NCBI GenBank assembly: GCA_963771465.1
Contig: CAVYTU010000019.1
Location: 1 to 64,000, forward strand
Length of the DNA: 64,000 nt
Direction of reading: 5' to 3'
Source: an uncultured delta proteobacterium
GTDB lineage: Bacteria; Desulfobacterota; Binatia; UBA9968
The notes under the pieces are model-generated. The model searched no databases. It saw nothing but the letters and a program-made list of their open reading frames with translations, and had not been told where the DNA came from. A program made the position numbers and the translations under genes. Positions 19,185 through 37,220 of this stretch are shown piece by piece (the stretch's first letter is position 1; every line of letters starts with the position of its first letter).

Positions 19185-19325
19185 TCTCAGCGGTTCAGCG
19201 CGCCCAGTGGGGTTAGACCCAGTCGTATCAGACTTCATGGTTCCGCGATCAACATATCGAGCGACAACATCAAGTTGCCTTCAGCCGCAGGTTTGGCCCG
19301 CTCGAAATGTTGTATGAAGTGCTCC

Positions 19326-19750
19326 GGGAACATCTGAGGGAACCACCTCGATATCCATGGGCTGGCGCAAGTCCACAATGGAAATGTTTTCTCCGGCGTT
19401 TATATTGTCCATGAATTCCTTCCGTTGATGCGCCGCGGTTCATCTCCGCCAAGCCGTGGCGGAAAGCTTTGTCCGTTAGGCCGCTCTAGGAATGCGGTTC
19501 AGTGACTTTGGCTGTCTCCAGGTGTCCACTACCGTCTCATCACTGTTTTGGCAGAGTTACAGTCTGTCCAACGATACCCGCGGGGGAGATTCGGGGTCAT
19601 TGGAGCTCTGCGCATCGGTTCGGCGTCTTAATCTTGACGTTTCTACTTTCGGTTTTGCTCCTAATAACGGTCGAAAAGAGTTCACTCCCGGGGTTTTCGC
19701 ACGATGATAATCGTTCGTGCCTCAGACCGCCGGAACTGATCGAGGCACGC
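19326..19750. pseudogene. Mosaic of fragments of three genes found intact at 30-35 kb
   Basis: 19326-19430 resembles rhodanese region 34406-34512; 19511-19582 matches 32524-32596; 19692-19750 resembles 30440-30518. Confidence 0.8.
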
Positions 19751-32344: not shown

Positions 32345-32429
32345 AGGCGCTGATATGGAGACGCCGAACGGCCCCGATCAGTGACCCGCATGAGAGACTT
32401 CATGAGCGAAAGATACCTCAAGGGATAGC

Positions 32430-32523
32430 GGGTTTCTTGACGAGGCTTTCGGTAACGAATGGGAAATTGTCCGCGAGCCAGGCGTCGAGCCCGCCTTCGA
32501 GCGGGCGGACTCTGGTGATTCCT
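32430..32523 (-). pseudogene. Duplicated 3' end of the rhodanese domain of 34165-35514
   Basis: Near-identical to 34177-34270. Confidence 0.85.
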
Positions 32524-34164: not shown

Positions 34165-35514
34165 TCAAAGGACAACGGGTTTCTTGACGAGGCTTTCGGT
34201 AACGAATGGGAAATTGTCCGCGAGCCAAGCGTCGATCCCGCCTTCGAGCGGGCGGACCCTGGTGATTCCTTTAGCTCGTAGCAGCAGCGCCACACGGGCG
34301 CTGGTCGCTTCGTTGGGTCACGAACAGTAGAGAACGACGTCGCGATCCCGGGGAATCTCTCCGTGGCGCTCTTCGATCTCTTCCATAGCTATACGAAGGG
34401 CACCCGGGATCATCTGAGGAAACGCCTCGATATCCATGGGCTGGCGCAAGTCCACGATTGAAAGGTTTTCTCCTGCGGTGAGTTTGTCCATGAGTTCTTT
34501 CGGCGTGATGCGCGCAATCCGCAGCCGGCGAAGAAAGCGTCGCCGCTGGATGAACTTCCACAAAACATAAGCTGCCAAACTTCCGGCCAGGACTGCGACG
34601 AGCCAACCGCCCCAGCGCAGTGCGATCCGCTCGAGTTGATCGCCGAGCATCAAGCCCAAGCTCGTGACGGTGACGACCCAGAGGAATCCGCCCAGGGAAT
34701 CGAAGATCAGGAAACGTCGCACGGGCATGCGAAAGACTCCCGCTAGAGACGGTGCTGCGGTATTCAGACCGGGTATAAATTTGGCAACGAGCAAAGAACG
34801 GACGCCATGCCGGACGAAAAGGTTCTCAGTCCGCCGCACGCAGGAGTCCGGTTCGAGAGAAATGCGGCACAGCAGCTTCAGTATGCGCCCGCCACGGTAA
34901 CGGCCTAGAGAGTACCAGAACAGGTCAGCCAAAATAACCGCGATGAACGCCAAGGTTACCGCGAACGTCAAATTCATTTTACCGGCGCGGGCCAGCGCGC
35001 CGGCCGCGATCAACAGAGGAGCAGCCGGGATAGGCAGACCAAGCTGTTCGAGCAGCACCCACCCGAACAGCACGGTGTAGCCGTGTCTGATCAGGAAGTC
35101 GGCAGCTTGTTCCAGGCTCAAATCCCGGAAAGCCTGCGGCACTAGGCTCGCGAAAAAGAAACTAAGGACAGTCAATATCAGCGCCGCAACCGCCGATTCG
35201 ACATAGATCCAACGAGCCTGGGAGCGGAGTCGTTTGTCGACGCTTTCATCGCCGACGGACTCTTCGGTGCCGTTCATCTTGCGCGCGCCGCGCGCGGCCA
35301 AAGCGACTCAGGTCTTTTTGCGAGCCTGGGAAACAGCGAGAGTTCCTATCCAGAACGGCAGAAATAGCGTCGCATACCACCCGCGGCTTACATCTGCACG
35401 CGCGAAGACGACCGCCAGGACGACGCCCAGCGCGAGCATGGCGACACCCATGAGCTGGCGCTTACGGATCTCCTTCGGCCCGATATTGGCGAGCTCTGCT
35501 TTTCCGACGTTCAT
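34165..35514 (-). CDS. Predicted two-Sec protein: small membrane domain, DedA (VTT) domain and rhodanese domain (449 aa; Sec69, Sec399)
   Basis: ORFs 35308-35514 and 34318-35301 and the downstream frame are contiguous: QARKKT-U-VALAARG and LYCS-U-PNEATSARVA...RPLEGGIDAW; DedA motifs EQLGLPIPA and LVAKFIPG. Confidence 0.82.
34285..34303 (-). promoter_or_regulatory. Candidate SECIS for the UGA at 34318-34320
   Basis: CAGCGCC-CGTGT-GGCGCTG, 14 nt after the UGA. Confidence 0.6.
35281..35295 (-). promoter_or_regulatory. Candidate SECIS for the UGA at 35308-35310
   Basis: GCGCGC-GGC-GCGCGC, 12 nt after the UGA. Confidence 0.55.
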
Positions 35515-35613
35515 CGAAAGCCACCGGTACTTTTGTTCATTATTTCGATCTCCGCTCAGGTTTCACCTTTAATAGCCGACACTCGTACATCCGACCGGAG
35601 AGCGCAAAGCCAG

Positions 35614-35870
35614 CTTAATTCTCTGCAGCGCACGGTTTACTTTGATGGATGACAATTAAGAAAGTTGGCAAGCTGGGAAGCGAGATAACCCCTGCTGCAA
35701 AACGGCTTCGCGGGATGAGTTGATCGCGGGCCTTTACTACTTTCCCCAGCCGGCCCTTGCGGAGCAATATCTCGGCTGAAAGTCCCGACTGGCTGGCTAC
35801 GCTCTTAAGCAAACCCTTTAACGATACGCGCCGCGAGACGGTGGCGCAATTGTTTCTTTGGCAATTTTCT
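35614..35870 (-). pseudogene. C-terminal HTH remnant of a probable Y1/RAYT-like transposase (copy 1)
   Basis: RRVSLKGLLKSVASQSGLS..ILLRKGR...KARD...GYLASQLANFLNCHPS resembles a DnaA-C-like HTH; direct repeat of 36824-37082. Confidence 0.6.
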
Positions 35871-36797: not shown

Positions 36798-37220
36798 GCG
36801 TCAGACTTGCCTAAGTCTACTAACTTAATTTCTCTGCAGCGCGTGGCTTACGTTTGATGGATGACATTAAAGAAATTTGGCAAGCGGGGAAACGAGATAA
36901 CCCTGCTGCAATGCGGCTTCGCGGATGAATGGATCGCGGGCATTTACTACGTGCCCCAGCGCCGGCCCTTACGCAGCAATATCTCGGCCGAAAGTCCCGA
37001 CTGGCTGGCTACGCTCTTGAGCAAACCCTTTAGCGAAACGCGCCGCGAGACGGTGGCGCAATTGTTTCTTTGGCAATTTTCTTAATGAATCGCTCCGGTC
37101 CGGAAATAGTCTGTTCATGAGAATCAGGCGGCAAAAAAAGACTCCGCGCTCGAATGGATGTTTGCCGACTTCGGCACGAGTCCGTTCGCCCAGAACCGTT
37201 CGGAAGTCGTGCTCATCGCT
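36798..37220 (-). pseudogene. Probable Y1/RAYT-like transposase 3' remnant (copy 2) with its terminal hairpin
   Basis: Frameshifted EQTISGPERFIKKIAK...SRRVSLKGLLKSVA...; followed by TAGACTTAGGCAAGTCTGACGC. Confidence 0.6.

Follow-up and report, generated by a model that had tools for sequence, protein, structure and literature searches.

Two predicted selenocysteines in a DedA-rhodanese membrane protein fused to a three-helix selenoprotein domain in Binatia-like bacteria

The window, by which we mean the whole stretch of 64,000 nt that was analysed, carries on its minus strand a gene that opens with the ATG at 35514 and closes with the stop TGA at 34167-34165. As proposed in the initial annotation, this is one frame of 449 aa in which TGA at codons 69 and 399 are the sole interruptions (Table 1). 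A Pfam scan of the window protein assigned aa 162-287 to VTT/DedA and aa 337-432 to the rhodanese family and gave no family for aa 1-125. The AlphaFold model of this N-terminal domain (pLDDT 96) contains three long helices; after the Sec position come a short helix and a beta-hairpin. It had been described beforehand as a membrane hairpin; its membrane nature stands, and the two helices become three over aa 1-122.

A 9-codon upstream ORF (window 35511-35540, minus strand), whose TGA overlaps the ATG of the gene, occurs in 5 of 14 related loci and is therefore not conserved. Further upstream lies a non-coding element of about 190 nt (window 35614-35800), which is repeated with 87% identity one gene further up (36824-37012) and in part on another contig (C16:75009-75124). 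Downstream, on the same strand, there are fragments of the gene at window 32417-32523 (94% identical) and 19324-19433 (85%). In G019, G015, L048 and L049 the downstream region likewise holds such fragments (four in G019, about 600 nt in G015), amid reshuffled neighbouring genes, which points to a hot spot of recombination or insertion.

Table 1. Features of the two-UGA gene, in window positions
Feature	Position	Strand	Description
Whole CDS	34165..35514	-	449 aa with predicted Sec69 and Sec399; terminal TGA stop
N-terminal Sec domain, aa 1-122	35149..35514	-	Three membrane helices; elsewhere a stand-alone family
N-terminal domain motif			N-I-G-x6-R-x3-G ... Q-A-x3-T-U-V-x-L-A-x-R-G
UGA 1, predicted Sec69	35308..35310	-	QARKKT-U69-VALAARG; Cys in homologues, TGA in metagenome members
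SECIS 1, predicted	35281..35295	-	GCGCGC stem, GGC loop from +19; conserved in TGA clusters
Linker, aa 123-133	35116..35148	-	Without stop; length variants all in frame
TTG codon 132, possible secondary start	35119..35121	-	TTG in 32/32 fused sequences
DedA/VTT membrane domain, aa 134-323	34546..35115	-	PF09335, E 5e-16
C216-x8-C225 pair	34840..34869	-	In basic DedA segment, presumed cytoplasmic
Rhodanese-fold domain, aa 337-432	34219..34506	-	PF00581, E 1e-12; loop C397-S-U399-PNEATS
UGA 2, predicted Sec399	34318..34320	-	LYCS-U399-PNEATSA; Cys in distant homologues
SECIS 2, predicted	34285..34303	-	CAGCGCC stem, CGUGU loop from +21; low synonymous divergence and fold

Each UGA is followed by the hairpin that had been noted earlier, the stems starting 12 nt (UGA 1) and 14 nt (UGA 2) downstream. 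Both have a G at loop position 1-2, located 16-37 nt past the UGA, in line with the bSECIS model given in section 5 of PMC13188914. Taken singly, the hairpins do not exceed chance in a shuffle test (z = +1.76 for the first, -1.59 for the second), the loose bSECIS test is also passed by 41 of 110 ordinary TGA stops and by the terminal TGA of this gene, and an Rfam search of the 64-kb window gave no match. The significance of the hairpins hence derives from their conservation across relatives and not from single-sequence folding tests.

A profile search with aa 1-122 found 862 protein clusters at 50% identity. Among the 150 listed, most are stand-alone proteins of about 120 aa, and column 69 is Cys in 133 of the 139 homologues that have a residue there. 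This answers the initial annotation, which had expected Cys to pair with TGA at KT-x-V among homologues of residues 1-125 and had named a non-Cys residue or a true terminus at KKT as evidence to the contrary. The close database relatives are 68-aa pieces in 119 of the 120 matches listed, and eight of nine inspected end at KKT; these proteins are gene-caller truncations. Nineteen of 20 truncated ORFs that we looked up are recorded as proteins ending at the TGA, one of them from a Zixibacteria genome.

A motif scan of metagenome DNA recovered at least 116 true members of the N-terminal domain family, after removal of 4 spurious matches among the 120 listed. From other searches, L051 and G477 were dropped as spurious. 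Among the matches listed, 107 members have TGA (88 stand-alone, 17 fused and 2 cut) and 9 have TGC or TGT, all of the latter stand-alone; since the scan motif overlaps the SECIS, the share of TGA is biased upward. Stand-alone members reach their next stop 52-69 codons past the TGA. Grouped at 70% identity, the members listed form 67 clusters, 59 with TGA and 8 with Cys. Of the 59 TGA clusters, 55 have a GG loop at +19 closed by a stem of at least 4 pairs, versus 2 of the 8 Cys clusters (Fisher p 5e-5, the clusters not being fully independent). When the TGA clusters were shuffled synonymously 1000 times, the hairpin survived in 11 clusters on average and in 22 at most. One cluster shows a compensatory change from G-C to A-U in the stem of SECIS 1. 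The Cys forms that carry a name come from Pyrinomonadaceae and Blastocatellia, and on the tree Cys forms are scattered among the Sec forms. Scoring 11 candidates in each genome, a phylum search found the domain in 1 of 401 genomes; a plasmid search found none. Among 137 Cys forms, 78 have a second Cys at most 4 residues before the invariant N-I-G, as do 18 among 54 TGA forms; the fusion lacks this second Cys, which could pair with the Cys/Sec site.

At the second UGA, U399 aligns with Cys in all three proteobacterial DedA-rhodaneses compared (37-38% identity), and its codon is TGA in 9 of 9 matches from a class-level search of 251 genomes. Synonymous divergence falls to 0.054 over codons 400-410 versus 0.25-0.37 in segments outside the SECIS. 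The three Cys-type proteins have a YC-x-CP-x-E loop, in agreement with the earlier statement that DedA-rhodanese fusions typically carry YC-x-C-PNE. The model NF041203 (rhodanese_LYCAU) scores 79.8 bits, below its cut-off of 115, and the CxU within a rhodanese fold is present (LYCSU, PF00581). The domain shares the LYC-x-U-P loop and the downstream SECIS with the rhodanese-like selenoprotein form 3 (NF041203; CxU, PMC13188914 Table 1). Unlike those proteins, the rhodanese is here the C-terminal domain of a polytopic membrane protein that has a second Sec in an unrelated domain. If C397 is taken as its first position, the loop exceeds Cx4R/T, which excerpts of PMC10135228 give as the sulfurtransferase pattern, by two residues, and it lacks Arg; with U399 as the first position it reads U-x4-T. 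Alignments to PDB entries place the catalytic Cys at either C397 or U399. From its sequence, the C-terminal domain is best assigned to the known CxU type of rhodanese, with a non-canonical loop.

The source genome encodes further proteins of this kind. An unfused DedA-rhodanese Sec paralogue (G000 C14:230125-231075, L259) is 68% identical and has its own TTG and AGGAG; the ORF directly downstream of it begins like what we take to be an FAD-dependent disulfide oxidoreductase. Two more rhodanese domains with in-frame TGA lie at G000 C3:14506-14805 and C15:1030862-1031188 (FCA-U-PDE and LY-U-ACPHH), and five further rhodanese-like matches cluster at G000 C19:118191-135058, on the same contig outside the window.

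The initial annotation had made its proposal depend on the presence of Sec machinery in the genome. Profile searches of the source genome located selA and selD above cut-off, the latter with an in-frame TGA of its own, as well as tRNA-Sec. selB also scores above cut-off and is split by a 1-nt insertion near codon 28 (G000 C14:198726-200613, L003). Since selB is intact in four of the five congeners with the fusion (in the fifth it matches only to position 346), the frameshift is probably an assembly error. All 10 further genomes that were searched and carry the TGA form have selA; the comparison covers TGA-form genomes alone and hence does not discriminate.

Could the UGA codons be true stops, marks of a decaying gene, or Trp codons? 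Databases do end the proteins at the UGA, as in the truncated ORFs above, selB is frameshifted in the source assembly, and one database member (P0562) has Trp at the Sec69 site. Read-through as Trp and a pseudogene are nonetheless rejected by the pairing of Cys with TGA, by a hairpin specific to the TGA forms, by purifying selection, which acts downstream of both UGAs (dN/dS 0.08-0.45 across all eight segments of the fusion, 0.45 in the linker), by the use of TGA as the stop of this very gene and by the presence of tRNA-Sec; the chance left to such readings is close to nil. Both UGAs almost certainly encode selenocysteine, by a recoding mechanism that is itself ordinary.

The initial annotation had asked whether the fusion recurs. 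Full-length frames with two TGA codons were found in 5 other genomes of the genus among 41 genomes searched. Of 31 genomes in this genus, 11 have the N-terminal domain, and at all 14 true loci of the genome collection, some of them in genomes shared with the five, it is in frame with DedA. Of the 32 distinct fused sequences obtained, 19 run the full length, another 10 stop at the end of a contig or locus, and in the remaining 3 a stop or frameshift disrupts DedA; besides these three, the fusion of G019 is frameshifted. Most relatives that carry a name are designated Candidatus Binatia or Deltaproteobacteria. All 120 listed of the 146 longer forms of the N-terminal domain carry a DedA (VTT) domain. 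P0281, considered as a Cys fusion, was rejected as an internal-deletion form.

None of the 32 fused sequences has a stop in the linker, which occurs in three length classes (26, 5 and 1 sequences). Translation past UGA69 therefore yields the entire fusion, and the full two-Sec protein is very probably a main product. In relatives, metatranscriptome contigs extend over both UGAs, and one contig spans the junction between the N-terminal domain and DedA; these contigs give neither strand nor a single transcript. The alternative that had been offered, two separate selenoproteins with DedA restarting near 35120, fails as the whole story because no stop separates the two parts; an extra internal start is conceivable, given the invariant TTG at 35121. 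It would yield a DedA-rhodanese beside the fusion, spared when low selenium ends translation at UGA69. We consider such a dual product rather improbable. TTG132 lies two codons upstream of the register in which unfused DedA-rhodaneses start, where 30 of the 32 fusions have CTG. In 25 of the 32 sequences the Shine-Dalgarno interaction before TTG132 falls short of -3 kcal/mol, versus -6.6 for the start of the unfused paralogue. Moreover, the TTG of Leu241 is equally invariant (19/19), the two being among 10 columns in which TTG is the majority codon.

A quick tree built from 116 rows gathers the 8 fused rows into a single group (SH-aLRT 99), whose neighbour, with support 88, is the stand-alone Sec gene from G656; 66 of the 113 inner branches of this tree are unresolved. 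G656 carries both halves unfused on different contigs; G549, of the same genus, carries the fusion. On these grounds the fusion appears to have arisen once, in one Binatia-like family, from two pre-existing selenoprotein genes. One event in two genera provides a weak functional link. Among 110 scanned neighbours (of 119) of the stand-alone gene none is a DedA or rhodanese, no operon recurs, and these neighbourhoods lend no support to a sulfur/selenium or metalloid role.

We had assumed a likeness of the N-terminal domain to DUF2892 ahead of the Pfam scan. Searches against NCBIfam and PDB sequences found no family, and a fold search gave no match (best Foldseek E 0.61). A VIA fold comparison reached at best Z 7.0, to a helical bundle, which is non-excluding, and the ESM Atlas, queried with a Cys homologue, returned unnamed clusters only (recognition 2286, below 2300). 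YgaP-like_TM (PF11127) is the Pfam family matched by most members, though weakly (19 of 119, best E 0.0011), with no match above the gathering cut-off for the window domain or in the search of the source genome. By hhalign against 28 PF11127 sequences, the match has 83% probability over 44 columns (score 33.4 versus at most 14.1 in 60 column shuffles); it stops before the Cys. The N-I-G...R...G start is in register; the register of the Cys is ambiguous. No match was obtained to E. coli YgaP alone. Hence we speak of a distant resemblance to YgaP-like domains, membership itself not being established. The points of likeness to PF11127 (DUF2892) and E. coli YgaP are the N-[IV]-G-x2-[DE]-R-x2-R-x3-G start, two helices, a conserved, possibly equivalent Cys/Sec after helix 2 and a fused rhodanese. 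Unlike YgaP, the domain has a longer loop ahead of the Cys/Sec, an extra beta-hairpin and third helix, and weak Pfam scores. E. coli YgaP joins a rhodanese to a YgaP-like membrane domain, according to passages of PMC4730233; in the fusion, by contrast, the domain order is reversed, with DedA in between.

The DedA/VTT core scores 59.6 bits with PF09335 (cut-off 33.9). All 19 full-length fusions have its C216-x8-C225 pair, as do the three proteobacterial Cys-type homologues, and C216, C225, C397 and Cys/Sec399 are invariant down to 37-38% identity. The pair and the YC-x-C-P-x-E loop are shared, at this identity, with fusions of DedA to the thiosulfate sulfurtransferase GlpE (such as WP_043095768.1 and WP_003112452.1), which differ in having Cys instead of Sec and in lacking the N-terminal three-helix domain. 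Passages of PMC10127716 place DedA-rhodanese fusions in COG0586 and describe their function as unclear, and P. aeruginosa PA1209 is named as this type without a function in an excerpt of PMC12893004. A conventional undecaprenyl-phosphate flippase that carries additional redox domains would fit that placement and the conservation of YghB E39. It is nevertheless very unlikely here: D51, R130 and R136, which the same passages of PMC10127716 tie to UndP flipping, are replaced by A, K and N, and NF052604 (UptA) scores 63.9 versus a cut-off of 250.

The charge pattern, read by the positive-inside rule, would put the linker outside and, on the inner side, the N-terminus, aa 62-101, aa 203-240 and the rhodanese. 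In this topology the three N-terminal helices would lead to a linker outside, where DedA begins, and U69, C216, C225, C397 and U399 would all face the cytoplasm. The full-length AlphaFold model (pLDDT 64, pTM 0.42) is too poor to place the domains. Our best explanation, to which we give slightly less than an even chance, is one inner-membrane protein of 449 aa, in which SelB inserts each Sec at its own SECIS and which forms a relay at the cytoplasmic face. The C-x-U loop of the rhodanese would take up sulfane sulfur or selenium, or oxidise to a selenenylsulfide; the C-x8-C pair of DedA would accept or resolve sulfur or selenium from this loop, and U69, as the membrane-anchored partner, would receive it or re-reduce the chain. 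The DedA core may carry the product across the membrane. That the relay is a selenol/thiol system at the membrane surface for sulfane sulfur or selenium is a tentative reading, marginally less probable still, and draws on analogy with E. coli YgaP, a rhodanese plus such a membrane domain. The most specific version, in which the five Sec/Cys residues pass sulfur or selenium from the rhodanese through DedA to the YgaP-like Sec domain, coupled to DedA transport, is doubtful. Counted against the best explanation are the lack of a recurrent operon, the single fusion event, the poor full-length model, the non-canonical rhodanese loop, the short YgaP match, the broken copies, the invariant TTG132 and the frameshifted selB.

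The foremost rival is that one chain merely holds two independently working selenoproteins, joined for co-expression and co-localisation under selenium supply. The single origin on the tree agrees with this, as do the stand-alone genes not beside DedA or rhodanese genes, and genomes of two genera (g260 and g264) that have the N-terminal domain gene yet give no DedA-rhodanese hit at E 1e-45. Speaking for a working connection, the linker is kept in frame and under purifying selection across two genera, and the reactive residues would all lie on one face; we regard the passive fusion as unlikely, at perhaps one chance in a few. Still less probable, and slightly behind the dual product discussed above, is binding or export of metals or metalloids, with U69, C-x8-C and C-x-U as soft-ligand sites (As, Hg, Cu, selenite) and DedA as the transport core. 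Longer rhodanese loops accompany phosphatase and arsenate reductase chemistry in excerpts of PMC10135228, the title of Ledgham 2005 links DedA with selenite, and one stand-alone gene (L101) follows genes of the ArsR family and AhpC/TSA. Against such a role, the loop lacks Arg and Cx5R is absent, and there are no recurrent metal-resistance neighbours among 110 proteins.

A comparable architecture already described is TsoB, the rhodanese/DsbD fusion-like double selenoprotein (NF045694; PMC13188914 Table 1), which likewise has two Sec and a rhodanese fused to a DsbD-like domain; its motif is UxxxxU, whereas the fusion has two separate SECIS about 1 kb apart. The window protein gave no match to NF045694. 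We take the DsbD-like partner of TsoB to be a membrane domain, too. Table 1 of PMC13188914 (119 families, 2026) lists CxU rhodaneses and several double selenoproteins and has no entry for DedA, VTT or DUF2892; its families listed as hypothetical only have NCBIfam models, none of which matches the N-terminal domain. In the parts consulted, deep-Sep (PMC12013277) and BSepDB (PMC13326102) name no DedA, VTT or DUF2892 selenoprotein, and the BSepDB family list may bear on novelty. The N-terminal selenoprotein family is thus absent from this 119-family table and from NCBIfam. The literature search yielded no report of a DedA-rhodanese selenoprotein or of selenocysteine in YgaP, and no earlier account of the two-Sec fusion was found in the literature searched. 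The gene adds this family and a membrane architecture with two Sec and two SECIS; the CxU rhodanese type was already known.

Overall, the two-Sec gene structure is far firmer than the proposed chemistry. The N-terminal domain represents a widespread membrane selenoprotein family, with at least 59 TGA clusters at 70% identity, whose members gene callers have cut in half. The lineage-specific fusion suggests a membrane redox relay, without demonstrating one. If the relay were true, DedA-rhodaneses would be redox-coupled movers of sulfur or selenium and not lipid flippases, a widespread orphan three-helix selenoprotein would gain a partner, and the first UGA would serve the entire protein as a selenium-dependent switch. 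Together with the invariant Cys pair of DedA, the fusion offers a testable handle on the role of DedA-rhodanese fusions, and also on that of the conserved Cys in YgaP/DUF2892-like domains.
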